Shown one piece after another: positions 11,771-34,301 of a stretch of DNA of 64,000 nt; within the stretch, counting starts at the first letter, position 1; every line of letters starts with the position of its first letter. The notes beneath the pieces were generated by a model. That model saw nothing but the letters and a program-made list of their open reading frames with translations, had not been told where the DNA came from and ran no database searches. Where the stretch lies: assembly GCA_934098485.1 (NCBI GenBank), contig CAKOOH010000001.1, positions 68,329-132,328 on the forward strand. The letters run 5' to 3'. The DNA is from an uncultured Bacilli bacterium (GTDB lineage Bacteria; Bacillota_I; Bacilli_A; RF39; UBA660). Both the position numbers and the translations under genes were made by a program.

Positions 11771-11790
11771 TTAGGTACTAAGTTAGGTAC
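11771..11790 (+). repeat. TTAGGTAC tandem doublet (period 12), copy A
   Basis: TTAGGTAC at 11771-11778 and again at 11783-11790. It lies about 40 bp after terminator element 1 and about 120 bp upstream of the AbiEi-like gene. Confidence 0.7.
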
Positions 11791-11912
11791 GTAAATTTAA
11801 AAAAATACTAATTTTTTGACATAAATTATTGGTATTTTATTTTTATAATAGTATTGACATTCATACTGACAAAATATAAAATAATGATATAAAAGTCAAA
11901 AGGAGAATGTAT

Positions 11913-12539
11913 ATGGAAAAGATGACTATAAAAGAGTTTAAAGATCAAAGTAATATTGAGATAATACAGGAGCTAATGAAGGTTAATAATGGATATATTA
12001 CATCTAAACAACTAACCGAATTGGGCATTCATAGAATGTATCTTAATATTATGGTAGATAGAGGTATTATAGAAAAACTTGATAATGGAATATATCTTGA
12101 TGTTAATAAATTTCCAGATTCTTATTATGTACTTAATTTGAATTTATCAGGTATTATATATTCTCATATGACTGCATTATATTTTCATGGATTATCAATT
12201 AAAGCTCCTGATACCAAGTATGATATAACTGTTAAGAAAAATTATAATAGTGTTAAATTGAAAAATCATAATGTATTTTATGTATCTGATGATATATATG
12301 AATTAGGATTAACGGAAGTGAAAACACCATTTGGAAATAATGTTAGAGTATATGATATTGAAAGATGTATATGTGATATTATAAGGTCTAAAAAAAGAAT
12401 GGATAATGAACATATTAAATATAGTTTAAGAGAATATATTAAGAGAAAGGATAAGGATCTTGTTAAACTTTCTAAGTACGCAGATAAAATGGGTATTAAA
12501 AAAGAAGTAATGGATTTATTGGAGTGGTTATATGAATAA
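11913..12539 (+). CDS. AbiEi-like wHTH protein (type IV TA antitoxin / transcriptional regulator family)
   Basis: N-terminal ITSKQLTELGIHRMYLNIMVDRGIIEKLDNGIY resembles the AbiEi N-terminal winged helix. The C-terminal TPFGNNVRVYDIERCICDIIRSK region also resembles AbiEi. RBS AAAGGAGA lies 7 nt before ATG 11913. Confidence 0.55.
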   Translation: MEKMTIKEFKDQSNIEIIQELMKVNNGYITSKQLTELGIHRMYLNIMVDRGIIEKLDNGIYLDVNKFPDSYYVLNLNLSGIIYSHMTALYFHGLSIKAPDTKYDITVKKNYNSVKLKNHNVFYVSDDIYELGLTEVKTPFGNNVRVYDIERCICDIIRSKKRMDNEHIKYSLREYIKRKDKDLVKLSKYADKMGIKKEVMDLLEWLYE

Positions 12540-12732
12540 GATAATAGTTAATAAAATTAAATGTAAAAAATGTGGAGATGTTATTGAATCAACATATAGA
12601 TATGATTTTAAATTTTGTAAATGCGGTGCAGTTGCTGTAGATGGTGGAAAAGATTATTTAAGAAGATTAGGATATGAAGAAGATTATGAAGAATTATCTG
12701 AAGTAGTGAAGGAGGATAAAAAAGATGAATGA
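12532..12732 (+). CDS. small Zn-ribbon protein (CxxC...CxC)
   Basis: The 66-aa product KCKKCGDVIESTYRYDFKFCKCGAVAV carries four Cys residues in a zinc-ribbon arrangement. It overlaps the upstream stop by 8 nt, suggesting translational coupling. Confidence 0.45.
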   Translation: MNKIIVNKIKCKKCGDVIESTYRYDFKFCKCGAVAVDGGKDYLRRLGYEEDYEELSEVVKEDKKDE

Positions 12733-12946
12733 TAAATACGTATTTGAAACTGAAAGTTCTAGAGAAATGGAAATAGTAGCTTCTAGACATAAAATACTAT
12801 CAGTTTTAGATGATATAAAGAATTGGCGTAGAGAATTATATAAAGGATATGATAATAATGTAAGAATCTATGTAATGGTAAATTATATACTCACACTGAT
12901 TTTGAAGAAGCAAGAGATAAATTACCAAAAGATGAACATGGATTAA
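12725..12946 (+). CDS. small hypothetical protein, probably frameshifted (it continues in the -1 frame to 13038)
   Basis: Overlaps the upstream gene by 8 nt. A second frame, 12859-13038 (..DFEEARDKLPKDEHGLIKDCKHVYLDIDLIDKIDNILSEVNYLLDY), has no start codon, consistent with a frameshift. Confidence 0.3.
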   Translation: MNDKYVFETESSREMEIVASRHKILSVLDDIKNWRRELYKGYDNNVRIYVMVNYILTLILKKQEINYQKMNMD

Positions 12947-13183
12947 TAAAAGATTGTAAGCATGTTTATTTAGATATTGATTTAATAGATAAAATTGATA
13001 ATATACTTTCAGAAGTTAATTATTTATTAGATTACTAAATTCTATTTATGTATTGACAAAACAAATAATAATTAGTAAAATATCATTTATTATTTATGTT
13101 TTTGTGAAAAAATCACAAAAATAATAAAAATAAGTATACTTTTTTATAATTTGAGTATATAATATTAATAGGAGGAGATAAAA

Positions 13184-14452
13184 ATGCTTATAGAATTTAG
13201 TGTTAAAAATTTTTTATCATTTAAAGATAAAGTTACATTATCAATGGAAAAAGGTAATGGTGATGAAAAACTAGAAAATGTATTTACTAAAAATGATGTT
13301 GATCTGTTAAGAACAACTGCTATTTATGGAGCAAATGCATCTGGTAAAACAAATATTTTAAAAGCTTTTACTTGCGCAATATTAATGATTAGAAATTCTA
13401 ATTTTATGAATGCCACTAATAAATGGCTTTCAATAAAACCTTTCTTATTTGATAAAAAAACAAGTAAGGAACCTAGTGAATTTGAATTTATTTTCATTGC
13501 TAATGGTGTTAAATATAGATACTTCTTTAGTGCAGATGCAAATAAGATATATGATGAAATTTTAGATGCATATTATACACAGAAACCAACAAATATATTT
13601 ACAAGAACAAATACAAATGATTATGAATTTAATAATGATAAATCTAAATTAGACTCAATAGCTGCAAAGAATACTGAAAATAAACTATTTTTAACAACAG
13701 CAACAACTTGGAATTATGATAAAACAAAAGATGCATTTTTATGGTTTAGTGAAAAAATTGATACATATGATTCATTTGATAGGATATTAGATCAGGACTT
13801 AATTGAATATAGTAAAAATGATGGAGAATTAAAAGAATTTGCTTTAAAATTATTAAAAGAAGCAGATATATTTATTAAAGATATTCATGTTGATTATGAA
13901 GAAAAAGAAATGGATAATGCAATGATGGATTTGTTAATTCCACCACTTGCTAGAACTAACGGAACATTTAAAATGTCTAATGTTAGAATAGAATTAGAAC
14001 ATGAAATAACTGATGAAAATAAAAATAAACATATTTATAGTTTAAATTTCAATGATGAATCATCAGGAACACGAACATTATTTGCTTTAGCGCCATTTTT
14101 AAAAAGAGCATTTGAGAGTACAAAAACAATTGTAGTAGATGAACTAGAAAAAAGTATGCATCCAGCATTAGTAGAATTTATTGTAAAACTATTTAATGAT
14201 AAATCTGTTAATAAAGCAAATAGTCAGTTGATATTCATAACTCATGCAACAAATTTATTAACAATAGAATTATTAAGAAGAGATCAGATATGGTTTACTG
14301 AAAAAAATCCAGACACTGGTGTTTCAGAATTATATCCACTTGATTCGTTTTCAGTTAGAAAAGATGAAAATATTCAGAAAGGTTACATAAATGGTAGATA
14401 TGGGGCAGTTCCATTTATAAAAGATATTGATTCATGGCCAGAAGATATGTAG
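13184..14452 (+). CDS. AAA_21-type ABC ATPase (AbiLi/RloA-like)
   Basis: MLIEFSVKNFLSFKD...AIYGANASGKTNILKA (Walker A). Walker B IVVDELEKSMHP. RBS AGGAGGAG. Confidence 0.55.
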   Translation: MLIEFSVKNFLSFKDKVTLSMEKGNGDEKLENVFTKNDVDLLRTTAIYGANASGKTNILKAFTCAILMIRNSNFMNATNKWLSIKPFLFDKKTSKEPSEFEFIFIANGVKYRYFFSADANKIYDEILDAYYTQKPTNIFTRTNTNDYEFNNDKSKLDSIAAKNTENKLFLTTATTWNYDKTKDAFLWFSEKIDTYDSFDRILDQDLIEYSKNDGELKEFALKLLKEADIFIKDIHVDYEEKEMDNAMMDLLIPPLARTNGTFKMSNVRIELEHEITDENKNKHIYSLNFNDESSGTRTLFALAPFLKRAFESTKTIVVDELEKSMHPALVEFIVKLFNDKSVNKANSQLIFITHATNLLTIELLRRDQIWFTEKNPDTGVSELYPLDSFSVRKDENIQKGYINGRYGAVPFIKDIDSWPEDM

Positions 14453-15048
14453 CACCAAGAAAAAGTAAAAGACCAATAATTATTATTGGCTCTGAAGGTG
14501 AAGGTAGAAATACAGAAAAGTGTTATTTTGGAAACTTTTCAAATAATAGTTTAAGAATTAAATTTTCTACTGGTGGGAGTACTAATCCTAAAGGAATGGT
14601 TGATGATTTGATTAATTATATTCATAATATAGATGCTAAATCAGAAGATCACATAAGAACATTCTTAGTACTAGATACAGATTTAAGTGAAAAACGAATA
14701 AGTGAAATAAAAGAAATAGAACAGAAATGCAAAGATAATAATATTGAAATCATAACTTCGGCTCCAACATTTGAAATATGGTTTTTAATGCATTATAGAA
14801 ACAATAAATTAAAGTTTCTAACAAGTAAAGATGTAAAAAGGGAATTAGAAAAAATTAATGGTACATATTCAGAAACTATGGATATGTATAACAAAATTAA
14901 AAATCAAACAGATGATGCAAGAAGTACTGCACAATCTATTGAACAACAAATTATTAAAGATAGTGAAGATTTATTAAAATCTAATCCACATTCTAGTGTT
15001 TATAAAATATTAGATGCAATAGATGAATTTAATAATTTGAAAGATTAA
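14434..15048 (+). CDS. RloB-like protein (AbiLii-like, Toprim/OLD-related)
   Basis: RPIIIIGSEGEGRNTEKCYFGNF matches the RloB N-terminal EGExTExxYF motif. It overlaps the upstream ATPase gene by 19 nt. Confidence 0.5.
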   Translation: MARRYVAPRKSKRPIIIIGSEGEGRNTEKCYFGNFSNNSLRIKFSTGGSTNPKGMVDDLINYIHNIDAKSEDHIRTFLVLDTDLSEKRISEIKEIEQKCKDNNIEIITSAPTFEIWFLMHYRNNKLKFLTSKDVKRELEKINGTYSETMDMYNKIKNQTDDARSTAQSIEQQIIKDSEDLLKSNPHSSVYKILDAIDEFNNLKD

Positions 15049-15170
15049 ATAATTCTCTCTATATAACAAATATAAACATATGTTATAATGTAGTAAAGAA
15101 AGCGCTAGTACAGGCTTGATTAACAAGTTTATGTATTGGCGCTTTTTTAGTAGTAAAGGAGTATAAATAT

Positions 15171-17360
15171 ATGGAAGTTACTTTTAGAAATTATGAGACA
15201 AATAAAGATATTACACTTAATTCAGAAAAATCTTTATTAGTAATTTATGGTAAAAATGGTAGTGGAAAGACAACTTTATCGAGAAATAATTATTTTGATA
15301 AAAATTATGTTTTTAATGAAGATTTTATTTTTTCGAATGTTTATAATATTACAGAAACTGGTGCTTCGCAAACCGCTTCCACTAAAGAAAAATTTTCCGG
15401 ACTTTGGTTAGGCGAAGATATTGTAAAAATAAGAAAAGAAATTAGTAATATATTGGAAATTGAGAAAAAGATAAAAAATGATTTTCAAACTGAACAAACA
15501 AAATTACTAGATTTTTTTGCTAAAAATCAAATTCAAGTTAATATTTATGATAAAATCAAAGAATTAAATGATAAAGATTTTTGCTTGAATTTAGAAAAAT
15601 ATGATGAGCAAAAAGAAAACTATATTTCGACTTTAATTTTTAAAACCAATATAACAGATAAAGAAAAGTTTATTGAAAAATTAACATATTATAGAAAAAA
15701 TGATATTTATAATATGCTTGTTTCAAAGATAAAATCTAATAACTTATTATCTGAATTAATATTTGCAGATGTTAAAGGTTATATTGATAATATAAATATG
15801 AGGATAAGTCTATTAAGTAAGCAAAAAGAAATAATAGATGAAGTTGAAAAAATATATAAAGATGAAGAAATTACTAATGATCTAAAGGAAAAAATACAAG
15901 ATTGGTATGAAATCCATAAGGATAGGAATAAATGTGTATTTTGTGGCAATACAAATATAGAATCTGCAAAAACAAAATGGAAAAAAGTTTTTTTGAATGA
16001 ATTTATTGATTGCAAAAATAAATTAATAAAGGAATTAAGAATTGATTTAAATTATTGCGAAAATATTATCAATGAAAAACAATTTGCTGAAGTTGATAAA
16101 GATATTATTGACACTATTTCTAAATTGATCAACTATTTAAAAAAATACATTGAAGATACCGAAAAAAATGTATTTTCAAAATTTGAATATAAAGTGGAAT
16201 TTGTAAAAAAAGAAATTGTAGAATTAAATGATTTAATAAACAATTTAGTTAATTATGTTTTGAATAAAAAGAAAGATATCTTAGGTTTTTATCATAATTC
16301 ACAGCAATTTGTAGAAAAATTAAAAAAAGAAAAATTAGAATTAACTGATAAATTAATGGATGAAAAAGGCATTATAATAGCTGATAGTATAAACAAAAAA
16401 TTTGAAAAATTTGGATTAAATAAGAATATAAAGATAATTGTTGATAAACGCTCTACACCTCACAAATTTACATATTCTATCGAAAATCATAGTAATATTA
16501 ATGAATTAAGTGATGGTCAAAAACATAAATTAGCGCTAGCAATTTTTATGAATTATCTTGAAAATCACGATTTGAAAGGTAAAACAATTGTTATTGATGA
16601 TCCAGTGGTTTCACTAGACATTTCGAGTTATATTTTATTTAAACAATATTTATTAAATGATTTAATAATTCAAAAATTTGATGAAAGTACTAAATTGATA
16701 TTATTAACACATGATATCACATATTTATATATCCAATTGTCTAATATATTTGAGAATCAACATATGAGAAATATAACGCAAGTATTTAAATTGAATGGGG
16801 TTAAAATCGAAGAAATTCCATTAGACTTTATTAAAACAGATGACATCACACTATTTAGAGAAGCACTTGATAGTTTAACAAACATATCTGAACTAAGAAT
16901 ATTGAATGCAATAATAAATAAAATTTTCAGAATTGAAATAGACCTTAAGTTAAGGTTTTTTGGATTATCACTTACCGATAAAATAGGAATCGAAGAATTA
17001 AAAATTGATGAGGATAAAAAGAAAATAATTCGAGATTATGGGAAACACATTGTAGAAACAAGCAGAAGAGATCATCCGACCGATAGTGATATTCAACAAA
17101 GTTTATTATATTTAAAAGAAGTATCAGATATTTTAGGATTTAATGATTTTATCACAGATAACCATATTGAAAATATTAATAAAATAGTTAATGAACAAAT
17201 AGATGGACCAATAAATAGTGAGTTGTTTAATTTAATTGACTCTGTAAAGAAATTCCTAAAATCGGATAATAATGATGACTTTAAAAATTATATTGAACAT
17301 ACAAGGAATTCTTATACTCGTAATCTTATTGGTTTGGGGTTAGATGATTATTTCAATTAA
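15171..17360 (+). CDS. RloC/PrrC-like ABC ATPase with a coiled-coil zinc hook; putative abortive-infection anticodon-nuclease-type protein
   Basis: Walker A GKNGSGKTT. A long coiled coil contains CVFCGN (a CxxC hook). D-loop/Walker B IVIDDPVVSLD (AAA_13-like). The C-terminal roughly 200 aa are uncharacterised (..ETSRRDHPTDSD..). Confidence 0.4.
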   Translation: MEVTFRNYETNKDITLNSEKSLLVIYGKNGSGKTTLSRNNYFDKNYVFNEDFIFSNVYNITETGASQTASTKEKFSGLWLGEDIVKIRKEISNILEIEKKIKNDFQTEQTKLLDFFAKNQIQVNIYDKIKELNDKDFCLNLEKYDEQKENYISTLIFKTNITDKEKFIEKLTYYRKNDIYNMLVSKIKSNNLLSELIFADVKGYIDNINMRISLLSKQKEIIDEVEKIYKDEEITNDLKEKIQDWYEIHKDRNKCVFCGNTNIESAKTKWKKVFLNEFIDCKNKLIKELRIDLNYCENIINEKQFAEVDKDIIDTISKLINYLKKYIEDTEKNVFSKFEYKVEFVKKEIVELNDLINNLVNYVLNKKKDILGFYHNSQQFVEKLKKEKLELTDKLMDEKGIIIADSINKKFEKFGLNKNIKIIVDKRSTPHKFTYSIENHSNINELSDGQKHKLALAIFMNYLENHDLKGKTIVIDDPVVSLDISSYILFKQYLLNDLIIQKFDESTKLILLTHDITYLYIQLSNIFENQHMRNITQVFKLNGVKIEEIPLDFIKTDDITLFREALDSLTNISELRILNAIINKIFRIEIDLKLRFFGLSLTDKIGIEELKIDEDKKKIIRDYGKHIVETSRRDHPTDSDIQQSLLYLKEVSDILGFNDFITDNHIENINKIVNEQIDGPINSELFNLIDSVKKFLKSDNNDDFKNYIEHTRNSYTRNLIGLGLDDYFN

Positions 17361-17374
17361 AAAGACCTAGTCCA

Positions 17375-18614
17375 CTAAAGGACTAGGTCATCTTCTTTTT
17401 TATTATCTAAATCTTCATTATAATCATAATACTCAGCATCTTCATAATCAATAATTGTTTCTTTAGGTTCAGGTAATTCTTTCTGCTTACTTTCTAATAA
17501 TTTAGTATTTTGAACTTCTATAATTTGAACTATGTTCTCAAGTCTATTTTGGTACATATGAGAGTAGGTATTAAGTGTTTCATCAATTTTAGAATGTCCT
17601 AAGTACTTAGCTACTAATATTGGCTCCACTATCAATTAATAGCGATGCACAACTATGTCTAAAATCATGTACTCTTATATCTTTAACACCAGCTTTAAAA
17701 GCATTTTTAGTTTTTCTATCTCTTAATGTAGTTTCTGGTAATGGATCAATATCTCCAAAAACATACCAGTTATCATTGAAATTATAAAATCTACTACTAT
17801 CATCGTATAAATCTTTTAAGTAATTTAATAAGAAATTTGGAATAGGTATTGTTCTGTAACTAGACATTGTCTTGGGACTGGATACAGAGTAGGGTTTACC
17901 AGTATTTGGATCAGGTGTTTTAGTAATATTTTTATTTACTGATAAACAACCTTTTCTAAAGTTAATATCATTCCATGTTAATCCTCTAAGCTCACCATTT
18001 CTTAATCCATAATAGAATAATACTTGAAATGCACATACAAATTTAGGATCATCTTCAACAGATAAGAATTTTTGAAATTCTTCTGGTGTATAGAATAACA
18101 TTTCTCTTTTTCTTTCATTAGGATTAGTGAAATTAGTCATTTTATTATAAACTTTAATAAAATTAATATCATACCATTTAGTTCCAAAATTCATTATTGC
18201 TTTTAAATATTTATAAATACCATTTTTATATCTAGTAGATATCTTTTGCTTATTTATATATTGTCTCCACATTTCATAATGTCTAATATTAAATGATTCA
18301 AGTTTTATATTTAATAAAGGTTCTAAATAAACCATCATATTTTTATAATTATAAAGAGTAGTAGGTTTAACTTTATCTTCTTGATATTTATAATGCTCTT
18401 CAATTAATTCTTTAAAGGTTAAATCACTAAATTCAGTAATATTTTTAATATTAATTTTAAATTCTGCTTCATGATCTTTAGCTTCACGTCTAGTAGCAAA
18501 CTTTTTAGAGTGATATCTTCTGGGTCTTCCTAAGTAATCTCTATAAGTTAAATCGACCATCCATGTTCGACCATCTTTTGTAGCTTCTTTATTTTTTACT
18601 TGTCTTATAGCCAT
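17375..18614 (-). pseudogene. tyrosine recombinase/integrase, frameshifted (integrase paralog 1)
   Basis: ORF 17607-18614 has an N-terminal arm-binding-like domain and the catalytic-core boxes (..HDFRHSCASLL). ORF 17375-17635, in another frame, supplies LVAKYLGHSKIDETLNTYSHM, which includes the catalytic Tyr. The two ORFs overlap at 17607-17635. Confidence 0.7.
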
Positions 18615-18679
18615 AAATCTCCTCCTTTGTTATTTGTTTCATCGAATTCTCTTTGTGCTTCTTCATCCATTTGTCTTAG

Positions 18680-18975
18680 TCTTACACCTATTCTTTAGGA
18701 ACTCAAAGAAAGCCAATAAGTGGAAATGAAATACCAAATATTATAAAAGTAGTAAATAATTTTAAAGAGAATAAAGAATTTGATTATGATAAGGCTTTTG
18801 TTGTTTCTAAAGAAGAATTATTAAAAGATGATTGTTCTCTAACTTTAAATAAATACAAAAAAGTTGAAGTAGAAGAAAAAGAATATGAAAAACCAGAAGT
18901 AATTCTTAAAGAAATAATGGATATGGAGGAAGAATTTAAAACAAGACTTAAAGAACTTGGAGAGATGATTAAATG
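18680..18975 (+). pseudogene. hsdM: 3' remnant of the type I RM methyltransferase hsdM (about 98 codons, no start codon)
   Basis: The frame opens after TAG 18677-18679 with no ATG near the 5' end. The translation ...FDYDKAFVVSKEELLKDDCSLTLNKYKKVE...EEFKTRLKELGEMIK resembles an HsdM C-terminus. Its stop overlaps the hsdS start (ATGA). Confidence 0.55.
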
Positions 18976-20079
18976 AAATATCTAAAAATAAAAGATATTA
19001 TTGTAAATACTTCTCCAGAAAAAGTCCCAGTTGGAACTACTCCCTACATTGAAATAGGTGATATTGATATATTTAATAAAACATATCAACATAAAGACAA
19101 AAAATCTGTTAGCGGAGCTAAATACGCATTAAAAGACTCAATTATAGTATCAACTGTAAGGCCTACTAGAGGAGCAATTTCTATAATAAAAGAAGAAAAA
19201 ATAACTGTATCTAACGCATTTGCTATTATAAATGTAGATAAAGAACAATGTAATTTTAAATATTTATTTTATATGATAAATAGCAATAAATTTTATCAAT
19301 ATTTAGGATCTAATTCAAAGGGAGCAACTTATCCTACTTGTTCGAGAGAAGATGTTTATAATTATGAAATTGCATTACCTTCCTTAGACGAACAAAACAA
19401 AATAGTTAAAATATTCGACAACATATCTAATAGTATTATTGTTAAGAAACAACAGGTATTTAAACTAGAACAATTAATTAAATCACAATTTATCAAAATG
19501 TTTGAAAAAAATAACGATTATAAAACATTTAAATTAGAAGAGATTGGATATATGCAAACTGGTGGAACTCCATCTAGAAAAAATAATGAATATTTCAAAG
19601 GAAATATAAATTGGTTTACTGCTGGAGAATTGAATAGCCTGTTTATTAATGATTCTATTGAAAAAATAACTGTCGATGCATTAGAACATAGTTCTGCAAA
19701 ATTGTTTAAAGAAAACAGCTTATTGATAGGAATGTATGATACAGCGGCTATGAAAATGGGTATTCTAAAACATGAAGCAGCTTCGAATCAAGTATGTACA
19801 AATTTTTATCCCAAAGATAATAATGTAAATATAATTTGGTTATATTATTATCTCAACCATCACAAAGAAGATTTGCTAAACGAAAGAAAAGGAATCCGTC
19901 AAAAAAATATAAGTCTGGCTATATTAAAGAATTATTCAGTTAAGTTATATTCAATTATGATTCAAAATAAGTTTGCTAACATAGTAAAACGAATCGATAA
20001 ACAGAAATATGAATTTGAAAAACAATTAGAAAAATTAAAAGAATTACAAGAATCATTGATGAAAGAGTATTTCGGATAA
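18973..20079 (+). CDS. hsdS: type I restriction-modification specificity subunit HsdS (two TRDs)
   Basis: 368 aa with two target-recognition halves separated and followed by conserved coiled-coil repeats (LPSLDEQNKIVKIFD.. and ..LKELQESLMKEYF). Confidence 0.8.
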   Translation: MKYLKIKDIIVNTSPEKVPVGTTPYIEIGDIDIFNKTYQHKDKKSVSGAKYALKDSIIVSTVRPTRGAISIIKEEKITVSNAFAIINVDKEQCNFKYLFYMINSNKFYQYLGSNSKGATYPTCSREDVYNYEIALPSLDEQNKIVKIFDNISNSIIVKKQQVFKLEQLIKSQFIKMFEKNNDYKTFKLEEIGYMQTGGTPSRKNNEYFKGNINWFTAGELNSLFINDSIEKITVDALEHSSAKLFKENSLLIGMYDTAAMKMGILKHEAASNQVCTNFYPKDNNVNIIWLYYYLNHHKEDLLNERKGIRQKNISLAILKNYSVKLYSIMIQNKFANIVKRIDKQKYEFEKQLEKLKELQESLMKEYFG

Positions 20080-20086
20080 TGCTTTA

Positions 20087-20110: not shown

Positions 20111-20146
20111 ATGATATAATAAATGAGTTATGAGTGGTGATGAATT

Positions 20147-25432: not shown

Positions 25433-25443
25433 GAGGTTAAATA

Positions 25444-26907
25444 TTGAAAGGATTAAAATTTTCTGAGTTATTTGAAGTTGAAAAAGAAATATTGGAAGAG
25501 GAGGGCTTTGTAGATCTTTCCCTTTTATGCGACTTGCCACTGTTTATAGATCCATTTTTAATATTTGGTAGTCAAAAAGAAGAATATCAATTATTAAATG
25601 ACGAAATAAATAAGTATTTATTATTTCTAAAAAATAAAGCTATTAATTATGATTTGACAAAAGGCTTATTAAAAAGTTGGTTTACTTTTTCTGAAGTCTC
25701 AAATAACTGGCTCGGGTACTGTAAATTTGGAAATAAGGGTTCTGGATTAGGAACAAAATTTGCAAAAAACTTATACTTTAATCTAAAAAACAAATTAAAT
25801 AATTTTGGTAGTAGTGATATTTTAAAAGTAGACCATATAGAAAAATTATGTCTAATAGATGACAATATAGGTTCCGATAATATTAGCGATTTTGTTGTAA
25901 ATATTATAAAAAAGTATTTCTTGGATAAAACACAAGCGTTTGCTCAAAAGTATTTAAAAAAAGAACATTGCAAATTGTTTAAAGTCGATAAAGTATACTT
26001 TGATTATGATTTAGAAAGATGGATGCCAAAGCAATACTATCTTCCATTTATCAATGATGAATATATTATATTAACACCTATAGATATGTTGACAAAAGAT
26101 TCTTCATGGTTAAACACAAATGATATGTTGGATAGATTTTATTTGATAGTAGAAAAAATACCAAATGAACAATTAAAATTTGAAATAAATAATTATTTAT
26201 CCTCACTATATAAAAAAGACATGACAAAAGAAGAAAAGAGAAAGGGACAATTAGATGTTATAAAAGAATTTCCTGTGTTGATAGATTACTATCTCTTAGA
26301 TCGTGAAGACACCATTGATGAAGCTTCTTCAAGAGGGATAGAAAAGAGCTTATTTATAGATGAAACAATACCAACAATTGTACAGGGAATAGCTAATGCA
26401 TTAAAAGAAACACAATTTTATGACTGCGATGATTCTTCATTTGAAGAGGCAAAAAAAAGAGCTTATTATTTGAAAAAATGTATTGAAGATAATGATGTTT
26501 ATAGGTTGTTCTATGATTCAAAAGGAAATGTTAGACTAACAAAAGAAGAAGATTTACAATTATTATTTAGATTAGTTTGTTTTGGTGTTATTTCTGATGT
26601 TAATAGAGAATGTAACAATGGACGAGGACCTGTAGATTATAAGTTTTCTAAATCTAACTTTGATAAGTCATTAATAGAATTTAAATTAGCTAATAATTCT
26701 AAACTAAAACAAAATTTAAAAAATCAAGTTCAAATTTACGAAAAAGCAAATGACACAAAAAAATCGATAAAAATTATTTTATATTTTACTGATAAAGAAA
26801 AAGAACGTGTAGATAAGATTTTGAAAGAATTAAAACTAACGAATGATGAATCTATTATCTTAATTGATGCAATTAATAATAAAAAGTCTGCTTCAAATGT
26901 TAAATAA
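25444..26907 (+). CDS. hypothetical 487-aa protein with a C-terminal RecB/Cas4-like PD-(D/E)xK nuclease motif
   Basis: TTG start 7 nt after RBS AGGAGG, 11 nt after the upstream stop. C-terminal ..GRGPVDYKFS...SLIEFKLANN..KNQVQIY gives the D...EFK...QxxxY pattern of RecB-family nucleases. The N-terminal roughly 350 aa are unassigned. Confidence 0.45.
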   Translation: MKGLKFSELFEVEKEILEEEGFVDLSLLCDLPLFIDPFLIFGSQKEEYQLLNDEINKYLLFLKNKAINYDLTKGLLKSWFTFSEVSNNWLGYCKFGNKGSGLGTKFAKNLYFNLKNKLNNFGSSDILKVDHIEKLCLIDDNIGSDNISDFVVNIIKKYFLDKTQAFAQKYLKKEHCKLFKVDKVYFDYDLERWMPKQYYLPFINDEYIILTPIDMLTKDSSWLNTNDMLDRFYLIVEKIPNEQLKFEINNYLSSLYKKDMTKEEKRKGQLDVIKEFPVLIDYYLLDREDTIDEASSRGIEKSLFIDETIPTIVQGIANALKETQFYDCDDSSFEEAKKRAYYLKKCIEDNDVYRLFYDSKGNVRLTKEEDLQLLFRLVCFGVISDVNRECNNGRGPVDYKFSKSNFDKSLIEFKLANNSKLKQNLKNQVQIYEKANDTKKSIKIILYFTDKEKERVDKILKELKLTNDESIILIDAINNKKSASNVK

Positions 26908-27011
26908 TTAAAATAACCGAGAAACTAATCTGAAGTTGTAAGATAAAAGTAGACAGAAAAAACTGTTTACTTTTTTTCTTTGATATAATTTGTATAAGGA
27001 GATGATAAAAT

Positions 27012-27362
27012 ATGGCAAGTAAAAGGCAAAAATTTAAACATTGGTCAAAAGAAGAAAAATTAAGGATAGTCAAAAAGATTGTTAATGAAGGTAAATCTAG
27101 TTATCAAGTAGCAAAAGAAGAAAATATTCAATCAACAGGAATGATTAGACATTGGGTAAAACTTTATATTGAGCAAGGAGAAAATGCATTAGTAAATAAA
27201 AAGAAACCAGGTAATCCTTTAAGTAAATATCAAAATAAAACGAACTTAACAAAAGAAGAACAATTAGAATACGAAAATATGAAATTAAGAATTGAGAATG
27301 AACTATTAAAAAAAGGATACCTAATGAAAGGAGATGGTACAATTGTAAAATTCATGAAGTAA
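27012..27362 (+). CDS. IS3-family transposase OrfA (HTH plus leucine zipper)
   Basis: MASKRQKFKHWSKEEKLRIVKKIVNEGKSSYQVAKEENIQ... is a typical IS3 OrfA. An A7 slippery run (A_AAA_AAA G) lies at 27308-27315, near its 3' end. Confidence 0.75.
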   Translation: MASKRQKFKHWSKEEKLRIVKKIVNEGKSSYQVAKEENIQSTGMIRHWVKLYIEQGENALVNKKKPGNPLSKYQNKTNLTKEEQLEYENMKLRIENELLKKGYLMKGDGTIVKFMK

Positions 27363-28249
27363 CTCAAATAAAATATGAAATAATCTAGAATTTAAGTAAG
27401 GAATATAATATTAAATCATTATGTTTGATAATGAAAGTATCTAGAAGTGGTTATTATAGATGGTTAAAAAATAAAAATATATTAAATCAACATGAAATTA
27501 ATCGTAAAGATTTAGGTGAATTAATTAAAGATATTCGCAAAAGAAAACCAAGTTACGGATATCATAAGATTAATGCAATAATAAGACGTGAAATTGGTTG
27601 AATTGTATCGGATAATTTAGTTCATAAGGTATGTAAAATATTAAATATTAAATCAAAAGCCAAACATTATAAATACAAGAAACTTGGAATGGAATCAATT
27701 AAATATTCAAATCAAATATGTGGTAATTGGAACACATCTAGACCATTTGAAAAAATAGTATCAGATACAACTACGTTTTGGTTTAAGAAAAAGAAATATG
27801 ATTGGACTTTCTATTTAGATATATTTAATAATGAAATAGTTGGTTATGATGTAAGGGATTCAATGCACGGCAATGGTATTATAAATCATAGAGAAGCACT
27901 GAATAATATGTTAAATAACAAAATAAAAAGAGGATATAAAGACCTAGAAACAATCGTTCACACTGATCAAGGTTCAGTATATTCCTCAGTGTCATTTAAC
28001 AATATATTCAATTCTTATAAAGTTACCAGATCTATGTCAAAAGCTGGCACACCAACAGATAATCCAGTTATCGAATCTAAAAATGGCTGGATTAAAAAAG
28101 AAATGTATATTGATTTTGACATAAATAATTATAACACAGTTCAAGAATTTATTGATGAATTTGTTTATGATAATAATTATTATAGACCTAGTTATGCATT
28201 AAATTATAAAACCCCCATCGAGTATAAAACTCAATTGGTGTTTAATTAG
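27314..28249 (+). pseudogene. IS3-family transposase OrfB (DDE/rve), interrupted by in-frame TAG and TGA stops
   Basis: The -1 frame contains ..SRSGYYRWLKNK..RKPSYGYHKINAII.. and the catalytic core HTDQGSVYSS..DNPVIESKNGWIKKE. In-frame stops lie at 27386-27388 (TAG) and 27599-27601 (TGA). Confidence 0.6.
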
Positions 28250-28286
28250 AACTTTTTGTGTCTACTTTTTGTTGACAACTTCAAAA

Positions 28287-29287
28287 CTAATCCTCGGTTT
28301 TATTATTATCTAAATTATCTATTACTGCAACTACTTCATCTAAAGTGCTTGTAAATAGATGTGAATAAGTTTTTAAAGTTTCTTCAACTTTTGTGTGACC
28401 TAAGTATTTTGCTACAACTTGAACATTAGCTCCTTTATTAACTAAAAGAGATGCACATGAATGTCTAAAATCGTGTAATCTAATTTGCTTAACATTAGCA
28501 AATTTACAGTTAACATTTTTATGATTAGTAAGTGTATTGCTACATACAGGAAGCATGTCTCCAGCAACAAAGAAATTATCATTGAATCCTGGTATCTTTT
28601 CTGCCTCGTTTTTCACCATTTTAAGGTCATTTGTGAGGACTTGTGGCATTTTTAATATTCTTATACTACTTTTTGTTTTAGGAACCGAGAATCACCAATT
28701 TTTAATGGAACCACGACGGTCATTAATTTGCTTGGAGATACTTAAAGTTCTATCTTTAAAATTGATATCTTTCCATTGTAATCCTCTAAGCACTCCACGT
28801 CTTAATCCACAGTAATATAATATTTCAAAAATACCAATCTATTTGATATCAGTTTCAACAGAAAGAAATTGTTTAAATTCTTCATAAGTAAAAAATAATT
28901 GTTCTTTAGGAAATTCATTAGAATCATTAAAGTTATACATTTTAGGATATACCTTAGCAAAGTTAAACTCATGCCAAGCAGTAGCATAATTCAAAATAGT
29001 TTTTAATAATTTATATATGTCATTTTTAGTTCTTGTAGCAAGATGAGTACTATTTATTTCATCATGCCATCTTTCAAAAGTAGGGTGGTTAAAATCTTTA
29101 AGTTTAACTTTATATAATGATTTTAAATAAGGCAATTTGTTGTTATAACCATATAATGTATTTTCCTTAACTTTATCTTTTCTAAAATATACTTTTCCAA
29201 ATAACTATCATAGTTATTATAAAAAGGATCAATAACCTTTTCACATTCTTCATCACTTATATCTTCATCAGTACATTTCCTTAACAT
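28287..29287 (-). pseudogene. tyrosine integrase paralog 2, multiply frameshifted and 3'-truncated by the IS
   Basis: Fragments 28287-28649 (..RLHDFRHSCASLLVNKGANVQVVAKYLGHTKVEETLKTYSHL..) and 28839-29135 are paralogous to integrase 1 (..FLSVEDDPK versus FLSVETDIK). The start is ATG 29287 with RBS GGAGGTG. The last codons are encoded by the IS right inverted repeat. Confidence 0.6.
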
Positions 29288-29416
29288 AAACACCTCCATA
29301 TGTATTAATCACTCTAAAAAATATCAAGCTTTTATAAAGAATTATTATAAAATCCAATAGTTTTCTAGGAAAAAAACGACAATTAATGATATAATTAATA
29401 TGGGAGGATAAGGGAA

Positions 29417-30652
29417 ATGGAACTAATAAACAACGTGAATAATTTAGATGGAAAAAATTGGCTTAGAAATGCAATTAATTTTTATGAATTAAAAACATTT
29501 GATTTAGAAGAAATACAAAAGAAGTTCTATGACCTTTGTTATAAAAAAAGAACTTCAGGAAAAACATTTTTAATTAATAGTGAATATAAGATTTTAAATT
29601 ATGATTTCACTTTTCAATATATTCATCATTTTGAAGAGTTAAAAAAAACATTTGATATAATAATAAATTCTTCATATAATTCTTATCATGCAATTTTAGT
29701 GGATGATGAATTAGATAACAATATTTTAATTTCAAAATCTATAACTGAATATGTAGAAAATTCTGGATTAGAATATAGAGGAAAGATAATTGTTAATTTC
29801 AAAGAAGAAAATATAACAAAAAAGGTTTTCTTAATACTTAATAGATTATCAGAGGTTAAACAAATAAAGTTAAAAAAACATGAAATCAACCACGAAAAGA
29901 AATCTGAATATGTTATATCAAGTAAAAGTAAAATTGATAAAATTGGATTAAAGCATCCTGCACCATATAGCTACAATGATATAGAATCGCTAATTGAAAA
30001 AGAAAATATACATGATAAGGTAATTTTGGATCCATTCTTAGGAATTGGTTCAACAATCATTGGAACTTATAAAACTAATTACAATATAGGGATTGAACTT
30101 AATAAAGAATATGTTGAGTTAATAAAAGAAAGAATTAAATTTTTAAATATCAGTGATTTAGATGATAGTAAATATAAAATAATTAATGGTAATTCTTCAA
30201 AAGAAATAAAAAAGATAGATCAAAATATTGATGTTGTTATTACATCACCACCATACTTCAATATTTTAAAAAATAAAAGTAAAGGTGTAAGACATGATAA
30301 AAGTCAAACAAGACAGGGGGTTGAATATTATAGTGAGTTAAAAGATGATATTGGGAATTTAGATGAATATGATGATTACTTAAAGGCAATGGAAAAAATA
30401 TTCAAAGAGTCATTTAATAAAATGAATAATGGCGGAAAGTTTTATTTAATAATTAGTGATTTTACAATAAATAAGAAAGAAACTGATATTCATTCTGATA
30501 TGATCCTTTTAATGAATAAAGTAGGATTTACATATAATGGTACTTCATATATCTTGCAAAATCAAAAAGCAATATATCCTTTTGGATATCCATATAAAAT
30601 TGTATTAAATCATATTTTTCAATATATAATTGTTTTTGAAAAGAGGTGGTAG
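29417..30652 (+). CDS. DNA methyltransferase (N4/N6 family, PF01555-like), RM operon gene 1
   Basis: AdoMet motif ILDPFLGIGSTIIG and catalytic motif VVITSPPYFN. The product is 411 aa with an N-terminal region of about 180 aa of unknown function. Confidence 0.65.
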   Translation: MELINNVNNLDGKNWLRNAINFYELKTFDLEEIQKKFYDLCYKKRTSGKTFLINSEYKILNYDFTFQYIHHFEELKKTFDIIINSSYNSYHAILVDDELDNNILISKSITEYVENSGLEYRGKIIVNFKEENITKKVFLILNRLSEVKQIKLKKHEINHEKKSEYVISSKSKIDKIGLKHPAPYSYNDIESLIEKENIHDKVILDPFLGIGSTIIGTYKTNYNIGIELNKEYVELIKERIKFLNISDLDDSKYKIINGNSSKEIKKIDQNIDVVITSPPYFNILKNKSKGVRHDKSQTRQGVEYYSELKDDIGNLDEYDDYLKAMEKIFKESFNKMNNGGKFYLIISDFTINKKETDIHSDMILLMNKVGFTYNGTSYILQNQKAIYPFGYPYKIVLNHIFQYIIVFEKRW

Positions 30653-31917
30653 TAATGAATAAACAAAGTAAAGACTATAAAGCTAGAAAGAAAATTGGAC
30701 AGTTTTTTACTGAAATCAAATTGGCTGAAAAACTAATTGAAATGTTTGAATTGGATTTTAACAATAAGGTTATAGTTGAACCATCATGTGGGGATGGTGT
30801 ATTTATTAAACAAATTATAAAAAAATCACCATTATTCAAAAATATCATTGGAATTGATATAGATAAAAAGGCACTTAGTAAATTATCTGGATTAAGTGAT
30901 AATATTGAATTAAAAAATAAAGATTTTCTAAAATTAAAATTCTCTAATGTTGATGTTGTGATTGGTAATCCGCCATTTAATTTAAAAGTCGATGACTTTG
31001 TTGATTCAACTGAAGCTTTTATTTCAAAAGGAATTGATATTTTAAAACCTGGAGGCGAATTAATATTAATAATTCCGAATACTGTTCTTAGAAGTCAAAA
31101 ATATCAAAAACTAAGAACAAAAATTTTAGATGAAACAAAAATTATAGGCATTGTAGATACAAGAGGACATGAGTTCCTGGGAGCTGATGTTGAAACGGTT
31201 GCAATATATTTGAAAAAAGAAAAAATAAGTGCACAAGAATATTACTATATTTCCAATGGCCAAAAGAGAAATATTGTTTTAGAAAGAAATATAAGAGATA
31301 CAATTTTATTGTATAATCGAAATTACTATAACATTATAAATAGTAAAATATTAGGTTGTAATTTGGAAGAATTATTCTATGTTAGAAGAGGTAATTGCAA
31401 GGCAAATGGGTTAAAAGGAAGAGATCTAGATTTTTACAATGATATTTATTATATGCCAGACGGTAATAGTGTATTTATAGCTATACAAAATATAGCGTAT
31501 AGATTGACTGCAAATGTAGTTAGAGGAGATCTTGACAAAATTTCTGATACTATAACAATGCTAATTCCAAAAAAGAATATGACAATTTTAGAAATGAAGT
31601 ATATTGCAAATTATTTAAATTCATCAGTTGCTTATTACAATTTGCATATAAATTGTTTAAATAATAGCAGGTTAACTATACATATGGATAAATATTATAT
31701 TGATGATATCAAAATACCAAGTTGTGATAATAAAGTATTGGATCATATGAGCAATATATTAAAAGGTCACGAGAGAAAACAAGATATTATTAATATTAGA
31801 AATGACTTCTTTTATAATACGTTTTCGTTGGATTTAGAAGTAATAAATGAAATAGAAAAATTTTGGAAGGCTCCAAAATATAAACTAAAAGAAGGAAGTA
31901 TGGGGTATGAATGTTGA
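30646..31917 (+). CDS. gamma-class N6-adenine DNA methyltransferase (Eco57I/TaqI-like), RM operon gene 2
   Basis: Motif X GQFFTE. Motif I EPSCGDGVF. Motif IV GNPPFN. A C-terminal TRD-like region follows. Overlaps gene 1 by 7 nt. Confidence 0.65.
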   Translation: MVVMNKQSKDYKARKKIGQFFTEIKLAEKLIEMFELDFNNKVIVEPSCGDGVFIKQIIKKSPLFKNIIGIDIDKKALSKLSGLSDNIELKNKDFLKLKFSNVDVVIGNPPFNLKVDDFVDSTEAFISKGIDILKPGGELILIIPNTVLRSQKYQKLRTKILDETKIIGIVDTRGHEFLGADVETVAIYLKKEKISAQEYYYISNGQKRNIVLERNIRDTILLYNRNYYNIINSKILGCNLEELFYVRRGNCKANGLKGRDLDFYNDIYYMPDGNSVFIAIQNIAYRLTANVVRGDLDKISDTITMLIPKKNMTILEMKYIANYLNSSVAYYNLHINCLNNSRLTIHMDKYYIDDIKIPSCDNKVLDHMSNILKGHERKQDIINIRNDFFYNTFSLDLEVINEIEKFWKAPKYKLKEGSMGYEC

Positions 31918-32401
31918 AAATGTTGTAAACTATGAAAATGAAATTGCAATGTATCCAGATATAATGGAGAGTATTAAGTTTTATATGGATTTATTTGGAT
32001 ATGAATGTAAGGTATTTGAAACTTGGCATGAGTTTAAGCCTGAATTGCGTGAGAGATTTCAAAGAGAAATAGATATATTAGGTGATTTTGGTAAGCCAGA
32101 TATTACGGTCTTATATAGAAAATCAAGTGATGAAGATGATAAAGTGTTAATAATAGAAGCTAAATTGAATAGTGTTGTTATGAAAGATATAGCTCAAGCA
32201 AAAATGTATGGTGATATCTTTAAGGCAGATAAGGTCTTTTTAGTTGCTCCTTATGAATTAAGGAGAATGATTGAACAATACTATTATGTAAATAAAAATA
32301 TTTTTAGATATGATGGCGATAAAGAAATTAAATATGTAAGGCTTTCTGATTGTAATCTACTTATACAACAATCAATCCCATCGGGAGGTGAGTTGTTTTG
32401 A
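31907..32401 (+). CDS. small PD-(D/E)xK nuclease-fold protein (candidate restriction endonuclease catalytic subunit)
   Basis: GKPDITVLYRK...VLIIEAKL fits the PD...ExK motif. Overlaps gene 2 by 11 nt. Confidence 0.4.
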   Translation: MNVENVVNYENEIAMYPDIMESIKFYMDLFGYECKVFETWHEFKPELRERFQREIDILGDFGKPDITVLYRKSSDEDDKVLIIEAKLNSVVMKDIAQAKMYGDIFKADKVFLVAPYELRRMIEQYYYVNKNIFRYDGDKEIKYVRLSDCNLLIQQSIPSGGELF

Positions 32402-33402
32402 TAACTGCAAATGAATCGTATTTATTAGGAATCCTATTTGGTAAGGGTTCTATTATTGTTACTGATAATGGTAATGTAGTGTTAAATTTTAGGGTTAAAT
32501 TTAGAAGACCTACTGATGGATCTTTGAGAACTGATAATATTCATACTCAAAGTGAAGAAAGAGCATATGTAGAAACATTAAAATCAAAACTATCTAATGA
32601 CTTTTCTGAAATAATTTATTTACTAAGAGATACATGGAACATTAATTCAAAGATAGATCTTCCTAATTCATATAGTTTAGATGATTGGAAAATGAAAGAA
32701 ATACTTATATCAACCGAAGAAATACCATGTGATTATCAAAGATTATGTGAATTGCTTAATGTTGGATACTTAGAAAATAATGTATTAAAAAAATTTCCTT
32801 TTCATCTAAATTTAGAAAATAATAAAATGAATGCGTTGTCTTTTTTACAGGGAATATGTGATTCTTGTTCGCTTGTTCCAAATGAAGCATCAAGTAGCTA
32901 TGGAGGAGATGGAGATTCTAGAATTCAACTTGAACCATCTCAAGAAAGATGGGAAATACCTATTGGGATTTGTAGGGTATTTCAAGTTGGATTATCAATA
33001 CCTGTAAATAACATAAATTGGGGCCATCCGCAAATTAGAGGCATGGATGTGTGGAGAGGCCAAAATCACCAATTTAGAGTTAGTTTAAAAAATATTCCTC
33101 CACAAATTGAATTATACAGATTATCATATAAAAGAGAAGAATATCGTAATTTATATGCTAGAAGAAATACATCTTATGAAGAAGCAGATTTATGCCCAGT
33201 TAGTAAGAGAGTAAAAGAGGGAGAAGTAATTCACGTATATAGAACATCAAATCCTGAGATTGATAATGATTTATTGGATGAAAGAATTAGAGGTATTAGC
33301 ATAGATGTATCACAAAGAAAGAGCCTTATAGTATGTAAGCTATTAGGGTGTACTCAGTGCCAAGACTATTTTGATGTTGAAATTGATAAAAATGATAATT
33401 AA
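32398..33402 (+). CDS. hypothetical 334-aa protein; candidate DNA-recognition partner of the small nuclease
   Basis: TTG start overlapping the upstream TGA (TTGA), with RBS GGGAGGTGAG 6 nt upstream. No recognisable motif. Confidence 0.35.
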   Translation: MITANESYLLGILFGKGSIIVTDNGNVVLNFRVKFRRPTDGSLRTDNIHTQSEERAYVETLKSKLSNDFSEIIYLLRDTWNINSKIDLPNSYSLDDWKMKEILISTEEIPCDYQRLCELLNVGYLENNVLKKFPFHLNLENNKMNALSFLQGICDSCSLVPNEASSSYGGDGDSRIQLEPSQERWEIPIGICRVFQVGLSIPVNNINWGHPQIRGMDVWRGQNHQFRVSLKNIPPQIELYRLSYKREEYRNLYARRNTSYEEADLCPVSKRVKEGEVIHVYRTSNPEIDNDLLDERIRGISIDVSQRKSLIVCKLLGCTQCQDYFDVEIDKNDN

Positions 33403-33408
33403 AATAAT

Positions 33409-33440
33409 TTGCTTAGATTTTGATAATCTAGGCTTTTTTA
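33409..33440 (+). terminator. rho-independent terminator after the RM-like operon
   Basis: GCTTAGATT-ttgat-AATCTAGGC hairpin (one G-U pair) followed by a T6 run. Confidence 0.6.
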
Positions 33441-33477
33441 GTGATATAATATATAACTAATAAATGAGGTGACTAAA

Positions 33478-34065
33478 ATGAAAGAATCAAGAATCATTAT
33501 AATTATTTCAATTGCTATGCTGATAGCACTAATTCCTTTATTATACGTTTTGCAATTGTGTGGAATAAGTAGTGAATTGAGTATAAATATAATTACCAAT
33601 TTAGGATGTGGGATTATAGTTGGTTTAGTTACAGCCATATGTCAGTATTTTATGGCAAAAAGTCGTATTATAAATACAGTGTACGGTCTATATTTTGAAT
33701 TATATACTACTTATTATTCTGTTAAAAATAAAGAATTTTTCCATCATATTAATACTATTGCATTATTTAAAAAACTTACTGGATTATCCACCGAAATCAA
33801 GAATACATTGTCAGAATATCATGGCTTTTTTAAAGAAAAGGAATCTATGTATACGAAAATTAATCCACAGATCAATATAGGTGAAAATTATAAAGCTGAA
33901 AAAATAATTAAAACTATTATTAAATGGTTTAATGAGAAAGCATTTGATGAAAGTGTTGAACCATTTATAAATGAAGTAGAGAATATATTAAAAAGTATTG
34001 ATGAAAAAAGATTTAAAGAAGATAAAGAACAAATGATAAAAATGTTTAATTATATATGGAAATAG
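33478..34065 (+). CDS. hypothetical membrane protein (2 N-terminal TM segments plus a cytoplasmic domain)
   Basis: The extended -10 TGaTATAAT lies at 33439-33449. RBS AATGAGGTGA lies 6 nt before ATG 33478. The track's GTG 33469 start is less likely. Confidence 0.4.
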   Translation: MKESRIIIIISIAMLIALIPLLYVLQLCGISSELSINIITNLGCGIIVGLVTAICQYFMAKSRIINTVYGLYFELYTTYYSVKNKEFFHHINTIALFKKLTGLSTEIKNTLSEYHGFFKEKESMYTKINPQINIGENYKAEKIIKTIIKWFNEKAFDESVEPFINEVENILKSIDEKRFKEDKEQMIKMFNYIWK

Positions 34066-34072
34066 TTATTTC

Positions 34073-34092
34073 GGGAACAAATGGGGAACAAT
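34073..34092 (+). repeat. GGGAACAA tandem doublet (period 12)
   Basis: cGGGAACAAatgGGGAACAA lies immediately after the 33478 gene stop. It is related to the doublet at 24644-24665. Confidence 0.55.
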
Positions 34093-34195
34093 TACATAGG
34101 GCAAGATAGATAAAATAGGACTATTTACGAAAAATATAGCAAATGATAAGTCAATAATAATGAAAAATATGACAAAAAAATAGGGTATAATTTTT

Positions 34196-34234
34196 CCCCT
34201 CCTGAAGAGAGCATCTAACCGTGCTCTTATTTTT
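34196..34234 (+). terminator. CCCCTCCTGAAGAGAG-hairpin-T5 terminator element, copy 3 of 3
   Basis: AGAGCA-tctaaccg-TGCTCT hairpin followed by TATTTTT. It is preceded by a TATAAT-like box at 34184-34189. Confidence 0.5.
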
Positions 34235-34282
34235 GTGCCTATTTTATAAGGAATTGTGAGGTATCAAGTTTGCTAAAATAAT

Positions 34283-34301
34283 TTAGGTACAATTTAGGTA
34301 C
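34283..34301 (+). repeat. TTAGGTAC tandem doublet (period 11), copy E
   Basis: TTTAGGTACAA followed by TTTAGGTACAA, about 45 bp after terminator element 3. Confidence 0.65.

Follow-up and report, generated by a model that had tools for sequence, protein, structure and literature searches.

The stretch of DNA analysed here (64,000 nt, referred to as the window) covers positions 68,329 to 132,328 of contig CAKOOH010000001.1 in assembly GCA_934098485.1 of an uncultured Bacilli bacterium, and the question that it raises is what its tandem doublets of the octamer TTAGGTA(C/A) are. Five such doublets, here copies A, B, B', C and D, had been listed by an initial annotation made from the sequence alone, and we recovered them at 11771-11790, 22879-22898, 23107-23125, 24437-24455 and 34283-34301, respectively (window coordinates; all repeats and RNA features are given on the plus strand). 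Our analysis makes it quite likely that they are arm-type (P and P') integrase sites of defence islands that have accreted in tandem, and partly decayed, at the tail of a small RNA (sRNA) gene. The mechanism is a known one; new are the family of uncultured gut bacteria in which it is found and the kind of target that is used. The copy in the window is largely decayed.

The junction repeat and the spacing of the doublets

Two further sets of repeats, both overlooked by the initial annotation, were found in the same region: a second family of doublets of the same design, CTTGGGAACAaCTTGGGAACA at 24644-24664 and TTCGGGAACAaATGGGGAACA at 34070-34090, and the true junction repeat, hereafter the core, which reads CCCCCTGAAG at 11704 and 23018, CCTCCTGAAG at 34198 and CCCCCTG at 24557. 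The region is modular and its modules are integrase-associated, as had been proposed: the four core copies divide it into three integrative elements and a remnant. In the window, the offset from the core is +67 to +89 for the P' doublets and -120 to -139 for the P doublets.

The junctions were located with strain variants: an exact look-up of the DUF975 protein returned ten contigs from public assemblies, most of them metagenomes of Hadza or other human guts. Their left flank is as in the window, while the DNA to the right differs: in 10/10 variants BLAST alignments show about 99% identity up to 11713-11715 and unrelated DNA beyond, homology of L007 and L010 to the window reaching 11762, with mismatches. 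Homology breaks off where CCCCCTGAAG(AG) ends, within the sRNA's unpaired tail, and therefore the junctions are at the core and not at the doublets.

Past the core, each strain has its own terminator hairpin and, 45-60 nt further on, its own tandem doublet with a period of 11-12. This doublet is TTAGGTAC in the window (core at 11704), L006 and L008, ATTAGGTACC in L001, AACTACCAA in L002 and TAGKTACCCA in L007 and L010; after the window core at 24557 it is CTTGGGAACA. L003 and L004 have no doublet and no integrase, and their different terminator is followed by FtsK-like and trypsin-like genes. They look like the unoccupied site; the right flank of the window becomes homologous to both again from 34515 on, within a trypsin-like gene that is truncated. 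The strains thus include occupied as well as empty sites, and the target repeat stands at both element ends, features by which Islander-type islands are recognized. Another arrangement is seen in L005 and L009 (about 10745-11400), where an IS200/IS605-type Y1 transposase and the hairpin acccccagatagtctgggggt directly follow an element-type terminator, the transposase occupying the usual place of the P' doublet.

Within the core, the crossover probably occurs in the CCCCCTG of CCCCCTGAAG. One and the same P' arm, beginning CCCCCTGccacatcc (CTTGGGAACA sub-clade), has a different left partner in each of three genomes (the window, L026 and L042), and therefore the exchange can be placed within CCCCCTG, although the exact limits of the overlap are our reconstruction. 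In L011 (7840), L015 (8767), L016 (5568), L044 (6818; all oriented coordinates) and L026 the core is surrounded as GCTCTCTT-CCCCCTG-AAGAGAGC, and the left flank is not the sRNA. This sequence is a perfect 8-7-8 palindrome, as would be expected if a 7-bp overlap lay between two core-type sites.

The initial annotation had instead taken the doublet with an inverted third box for the core-type crossover site, and a 20-mer for an att duplication left by insertion of a module of a GNAT and a VanY gene. The objects themselves exist: inverted boxes are present at 22904-22911 and 23133-23140 and create the palindromes TTAGGTACtaaaaGTACCTAA and AGGTAAtaaaaatTTACCT, and a 20-mer is common to 23106 and 24436, identical on either side of the GNAT+VanY module. 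Strain homology, however, breaks at CCCCCTGAAG, 67-139 bp from the doublets and 67 nt ahead of copy A; copies A, C and D have no inverted box; unrelated doublet sequences occupy the same offsets elsewhere, whereas the core is constant; and the three genomes that join one P' arm to different partners do so exactly at CCCCCTG. The 20-mer is the repeat of both arms, P' and P, of the second element (element 2), whose duplicated target is CCCCCTG(AAG), at 23018 and 24557. We therefore regard this reading of the doublets and the 20-mer as extremely unlikely.

The spacing was then examined in related loci, which were collected by scanning one genome per species with an alignment of three integrases (552 relatives, 80 loci fetched). 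The hosts of the 80 loci are nearly all metagenome-assembled genomes (MAGs) of uncultured Bacilli, Tenericutes, Mollicutes and Erysipelotrichaceae from human, ruminant and rabbit guts. Statistics were computed on 1.53 Mb from 90 loci and the window, with 87 cores. Exact 8-mer doublets occur there at 0.116 per kb overall; a doublet is present at +67 to +93 of 51/87 cores and at -123 to -139 of 29/87 cores. The concern raised by the initial annotation that the motif might be common elsewhere is not borne out by these loci, in which doublets cluster at fixed core offsets.

The same figures bear on the view that the doublets arose by chance or are of the low-complexity kind of repeat seen in AT-rich DNA, the window having about 25% G+C. 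The 16-base doublet pattern also occurs in at least 120 viral contigs, with a core at the right offset in one of them only (L213); by our own rough estimate this is close to the chance level for such a collection and is uninformative about function. But single TTAGGTAM boxes number 15 in the window vs 6.5 expected, none of 100 dinucleotide-preserving shuffles contained a doublet vs five observed, and the core offsets are fixed across 87 junctions, so that we assign chance next to no probability.

The small RNA gene at the insertion site

Upstream of the array lie conserved housekeeping genes: those for pyruvate:ferredoxin oxidoreductase, recG and a DUF975 membrane protein (10972-11580). Just 3' of recG-DUF975 we found an unannotated, conserved sRNA-like gene of about 95 nt (11640..11735; fold z = -5.96), the predicted attachment site attB of the host. 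It is preceded by a predicted promoter (TTGACA, 17 nt, TATTAT; 11605..11633; promoter scan 11/12) and comprises hairpin 1 (11640-11661), hairpin 2 (11662-11695), the unpaired conserved tail UCAACCAAAACCCCCUGAAG and a terminator at 11713-11728 with a U run. Core copy 1 (CCCCCTGAAG, 11704..11713), the breakpoint in the ten strain variants, is attL of element 1, and element 1 supplies the sequence of the gene from 11714 on.

The architecture (TTGAC box, two hairpins, tail UCAACCAAAACCCCCUGAAG, terminator) is kept in 22-26 other species, in which the stem sequences differ; the TTGAC box is found at -92 to -114 from the core in 22/26 orthologous loci tested, and 6/7 pairs of hairpin 2 show compensatory changes. 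MAFFT and RNAalifold recovered hairpin 2 only, hairpin 1 being misaligned owing to its length variation, and folds of the individual sequences were used. The sRNA has no Rfam match at the gathering threshold or at E <= 10, and no Rfam family was found in the window. ARAGORN detected no tRNA or tmRNA in the window, and thus the RNA gene that serves as target is not of either kind.

The invariant C-rich part of the tail is AACCAAAACCCCCUGAAG, which is unpaired. Orthologues of the sRNA were found in L013, L014, L018, L021-L023, L029, L034, L036, L043, L047, L051-L053, L059, L068, L073, L075, L082, L083 and L090, and in at least 120 metagenome contigs. As a speculation, the CCCCCU tail resembles the C-rich seeds of Firmicute sRNAs that pair with Shine-Dalgarno sequences. 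A search of viral contigs for the tail gave three matches, all of them host-flank-like junctions; one of these contigs (L211) carries a triple TTAGATACT repeat.

A hairpin and a T run, different in every variant, immediately follow CCCCCTGAAG, and in this way the element restores the gene. In the mechanism that we propose, the islands would be inserted successively into one target by site-specific recombination with a tyrosine integrase. The target would be the unpaired 3' tail CCCCCTGAAG, with CCCCCTG as the probable overlap. Each insertion would exchange the terminator of the sRNA for an element-borne one, and therefore the target would be regenerated for the next element. The region 11704-34514 would accordingly represent a tandem array of integrative islands of 11.3, 1.5 and 9.6 kb and a 0.3-kb remnant, whose order of insertion is inferred.

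Islands in RNA genes are known to restore the split gene and to leave a displaced fragment of the target at the far end (PMC4383910), and tandem islands at ssrA have been described in Dehalococcoides (PMC3146451). The present elements resemble Islander-type islands in that they target the 3' part of a small stable RNA and supply a replacement 3' end, in the displaced target copy at the far end, and in the reuse of the site, which yields tandem islands. They differ in the target, an unannotated two-hairpin sRNA which is neither a tRNA nor a tmRNA, and in that the element restores only the terminator and a few bases of the tail.

Integrases and the repeats that accompany them

Two integrase genes lie in the array, both on the minus strand. 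The tyrosine integrase int1 (17375..18614) has the domains PF14657 Arm-DNA-bind_4 (residues 18-58) and PF00589 Phage_integrase, as have the integrases of L001 and L006. It carries a single frameshift near 17607-17635, just ahead of the segment with the catalytic tyrosine, LVAKYLGHSKIDETLNTYSHMY, which lies in another frame. The frameshift is identical in the independent contigs L006, L008 and L214-L218 and is therefore not an assembly error. The second, int3 (28287..29174), is a pseudogene of the GGGAACAA clade without an N-terminus and with internal stops. With a frameshift in int1, a mere pseudogene in int3 and no integrase in element 2, the array is probably no longer autonomously mobile.

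The closest solved structures to the integrase are PDB entries 6EMZ, 6EN0 and 6EMY, deposited as 'Int protein', which we take to be the Tn1549 integrase; the catalytic domain is closest to that of 6EMZ/6EN0. The conserved N-terminal motif is TKDGR..W...Y..G..S..F.TKKEA. Tandem direct repeats whose boxes share a helix face are often bound by accessory recombination proteins, which are considered below. In heterobivalent tyrosine integrases, of which lambda Int is a documented case, a small N-terminal domain binds distant P and P' arm sites and the C-terminal domains bind the core (PMC4880445). Arm-type repeats in such systems are, as here, short, direct and unlike the core in sequence, and they often come as neighbouring pairs with a period near 10-11 bp. 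Both attP arms contain them, at distances from the crossover that range from tens to more than 100 bp; as here, one set lies inside each element end after integration. Mycobacteriophage L5 Int and the DR2 repeats of Tn916/Tn1549 Int provide further arm-type sites. The repeats are read there by the small N-terminal domain, and the present integrases have a matching Pfam arm-binding domain, which would suit the same role. The present family differs in having one core of 7-10 bp and at least a dozen arm repeats, and its target, the tail of an sRNA, is neither a protein gene nor a tRNA nor the AT-rich DNA that Tn916 uses. A literature search for the core and repeat sequences returned unrelated primer matches only.

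All anatomical features expected of arm sites and of integrative islands are present at this locus, and the suggestion of an arm-type direct repeat of a tyrosine-recombinase system, made by the initial annotation, fits the evidence. The P' and P sites of each attP would be the TTAGGTA(C/A) doublets or, in element 3, those of GGGAACA. The N-terminal domain of a cognate heterobivalent integrase would bind them, bridging arm and core DNA. After integration one arm set would stay just inside each element end, and because of this a doublet would be found on both sides of each module junction.

In the related loci, the integrase gene is on the strand opposite to the core in 87/88 integrase matches. 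The P' and P repeats match in 21/23 elements with both detected, vs 47% of cross-element pairs (one artefactual row dropped). In a neighbor-joining tree of 88 integrases the sequence of the repeat follows the tree almost perfectly; the repeat classes are TTAGGTACCA, GGGAACAA, TTTTGGTCCAA/TTTAGGCCCAA, TTAGGTACAA/..CGA, ACCTCTTAT/CACCACTTAT, TTAGGTAC, AACTACCAA and TAGGTACCCA. Integrases that are 94-96% identical adjoin clearly diverged host sRNAs in different species-representative genomes, and this argues for a recent horizontal spread of the integrases.

An independent sample was drawn from metagenome contigs picked by the sRNA tail alone, with no selection for an integrase, and contained 106 distinct junctions. 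A terminator directly follows the core in 106/106. A doublet is present in 36/106, new repeat classes among them, and absent from 70/106. Of the 47 loci that extend 3 kb or more downstream, 11 had both a doublet and an integrase within 8 kb, eight a doublet only, two an integrase only and 26 neither, a significant association (Fisher p = 2e-4). In this sample, too, TTTTGGTCCAA goes with an integrase that shares 92.5% identity with the one accompanying this repeat in L046.

The tree bears also on the operator reading, raised as an alternative by the initial annotation. In this case a transcription factor, for example the AbiEi-like winged helix-turn-helix protein (11907-12539), would use the doublets as operators or activator sites and so control the first gene of each module. 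Copies A, B' and D do sit 100-190 nt upstream of the first plus-strand open reading frame (ORF), and an AbiEi-like gene is the first gene past the TTAGGTAC-type doublet in L062, L073 and L079. The statement that every copy lies upstream of the first plus-strand gene holds for these three copies but not for B and C: copy B starts 3 nt past the stop codon of a 909-aa helicase, copy C covers the last codons and the stop of VanY, and these copies, like GGGAACA at 34070, are at 3' ends of elements. Moreover, copy A is upstream of both candidate -35 boxes and overlaps neither, AbiEi-like genes occur in 3/80 related loci whereas doublets are at most junctions, and the class of the repeat follows the integrase clade and not the cargo. 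Operators are thus a very unlikely explanation.

More weight, still within the unlikely, is given to another element-encoded accessory protein, such as an excisionase, a recombination directionality factor or a small DNA-binding protein, as the binder of the doublets. The period of 11-12 bp puts both boxes on one face, as is typical of cooperative winged-helix binders; fuller relatives have a small helix-turn-helix (HTH)-like ORF upstream of the integrase (L072 8692-8949); the gene of the Zn-ribbon protein DUF7695 lies about 240 nt past the P' doublet in two clades; and any co-inherited protein would also co-vary with the integrase tree. On the other hand, doublets in both arms at fixed distances are the classical pattern of integrase arms, every integrase has a dedicated arm-binding domain that needs a target, and no other small gene is common to the elements with doublets (the gene sets of L001, element 2 and clade G differ). 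In addition, N-terminal divergence tracks repeat changes: among integrase pairs matched for divergence of the catalytic domain, those that differ in repeat are 9-13 points more diverged in the N-terminal domain, whereas pairs with the same repeat show no extra N-terminal divergence, bar one bin. This trend is suggestive only, and the matrix of N-terminal vs catalytic identities of clade representatives is not decisive alone.

Several observations weigh against integrase arm sites as the explanation. The protein that reads the doublets is deduced from sequence comparison. The integrase and the repeat are co-inherited, and their co-variation alone cannot separate the integrase from another element-encoded binder; the comparison of N-terminal and catalytic domains uses phylogenetically non-independent pairs, and its 60-70% identity bin shows no effect. 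Two of the 23 elements (L051 and L083) have non-matching ends, being probably composites or deletions. The excised attP junction of the L001-type element gave no match in the metagenome contigs searched. Finally, both integrases of the window are defective, and its sites are perhaps relics.

Elements of the array and their cargo

From 11907 to about 34100 the gene content is typical of island cargo. Element 1 (11714..23017), an 11.3-kb defence island, is bounded by core copies, and its cargo, as identified by Pfam and PADLOC, comprises AbiEi-like, DUF7695 and AbiLi/AbiLii proteins, a PDC-S06-like ATPase, int1, an orphan HsdS and a PDC-S53 helicase. Its P' arm is copy A (11771..11790), TTAGGTAC twice with a period of 12, 67 nt from the core, and its P arm is copy B with two direct TTAGGTAC boxes and an inverted one (22879..22911), 139 nt before core copy 2. 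The HsdS gene (Type I; 18973-20079) adjoins the integrase in an element without hsdM and hsdR. The 66-aa Zn-ribbon protein DUF7695 (CxxC...CxC; 12532-12732) has relatives in L057, L059, L066, L068, L075 and L019; recurring at its position past the P' doublet, it may be a conserved gene of these elements.

Core copy 2 (CCCCCTGAAG, 23018..23027) is the junction of elements 1 and 2 and is followed by the terminator hairpin of element 2, which ends near 23056. Element 2 (23028..24556) is a 1.5-kb mini-element without an integrase, with both arms intact. It contains the GNAT (23296-23856) and VanY (23846-24451) genes and nothing else. Its P' arm is copy B', two direct TTAGGTAA boxes and an inverted one (23107..23140), 89 nt after core 2; in L001, the arm homologous to it comprises two direct and two inverted boxes. 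Its P arm is copy C, TTAGGTAA twice (24437..24455), 120 nt before core 3. Keeping attL and attR without genes for integration or transfer, element 2 is like a cis-mobilizable element (CIME). An exact look-up of the GNAT protein returned always one fixed array context (17 contigs), with no sign of independent movement. Other core-to-core units of 1.5-3 kb without an integrase were seen in L060 (13652-15124), L077 (18806-20885), L017 (5041-6868) and L051 (14315-17535; oriented coordinates). They resemble the GNAT+VanY element, and in L060 and L077 the arm doublets of the two ends match. A second VanY-like gene, 41% identical to that of the island, lies outside the island region on the minus strand (48661-49047).

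Core copy 3, CCCCCTG only (24557..24563), is the junction of elements 2 and 3, as seen from the CCCCCTGccacatcc arm shared by three left partners. Besides genes of unknown function, element 3 (24564..34197), a 9.6-kb island bounded by cores 3 and 4, carries DUF8370/8371-like proteins, remnants of IS3, two DNA methyltransferases and the int3 pseudogene. Its P' arm is CTTGGGAACA twice with a period of 11 (24644..24664), 87 nt after core 3, and its P arm GGGAACA twice with the same period (34070..34090), about 125 nt before core 4. The IS3-family remnants (an HTH ORF and an rve ORF, 27012-28249) abut the broken int3, and an insertion sequence may have destroyed its 3' neighbourhood.

Core copy 4 (CCTCCTGAAG, 34198..34207) is followed by a terminator hairpin ending near 34234 and, 85 nt after the core, by copy D, TTAGGTACA twice with a period of 11 (34283..34301), the P' arm of the truncated element 4. 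Of this element a 0.3-kb remnant with the left arm only is left (34208..34514), strain homology resuming at 34515. In L222 and L223 this remnant is found on the right of another island, one with a CTGCACA doublet in its P arm, and therefore insertions would have accumulated independently on the sRNA-proximal side.

Tandem accretion and CIMEs without an integrase have been described in streptococcal families of ICEs (integrative and conjugative elements) and IMEs (integrative and mobilizable elements) (PMC5704250). Like these CIMEs, element 2 and the remnant of element 4 are decayed residents beside presumed latecomers to the same att site, and in both settings distantly related integrases of similar site specificity coexist. 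The elements of the window differ in having no conjugation or relaxase genes (a Mob_Pre relaxase was found only in L002) and in their cargo, which is mostly for anti-phage defence. A likeness to integron arrays was also considered, since there, too, a platform by a fixed site gathers short modules bounded by recombination sites. It was rejected: no IntI-type or other integrase adjoins the sRNA in the window, the modules bring or brought their own integrases and promoters, and the junction repeats are core and arm doublets and not attC hairpins. Replication iterons and promoter elements were rejected as well, the repeats being at both element ends, at fixed core offsets, and following the integrase lineage.

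The anatomy provides a rule by which such islands can be delimited to the base in poorly known uncultured Bacilli and 'Tenericutes'-like gut MAGs: the sRNA tail CCCCCTGAAG, a terminator, a doublet at about +70 to +90, cargo, a doublet at about -125 to -139 and the next core. Current understanding of site-specific recombination is unchanged by it. The sRNA tail is a hotspot rich in known and candidate anti-phage systems, and the conserved structured sRNA, not in Rfam, merits study itself. Integrases with one core and different arm repeats form a natural series for the evolution of arm specificity and may yield orthogonal integration tools.

A bolder reading, which we consider unlikely, is that the locus is a working, reusable landing pad, the sRNA being the universal attB of the integrase family and mini-elements being exchanged in trans. 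The family would keep one 7-bp overlap and a dozen or more orthogonal arm-site 'codes', and incoming integrases with a compatible code would capture and excise mini-elements of 1.5-3 kb (GNAT+VanY and the units of L060, L077 and L051); TTAGGTAA and TTAGGTAC would form one compatible pair. If so, defence cassettes would be exchanged in an integron-like manner, and each insertion would rewire the 3' end of the sRNA.

Outside the array, one block of the window, 42000-50000, is oriented unlike the rest. GC skew is strongly positive on the coding strand in the window, and both GC and AT skew change sign in this block because the genes there are mostly on the minus strand.

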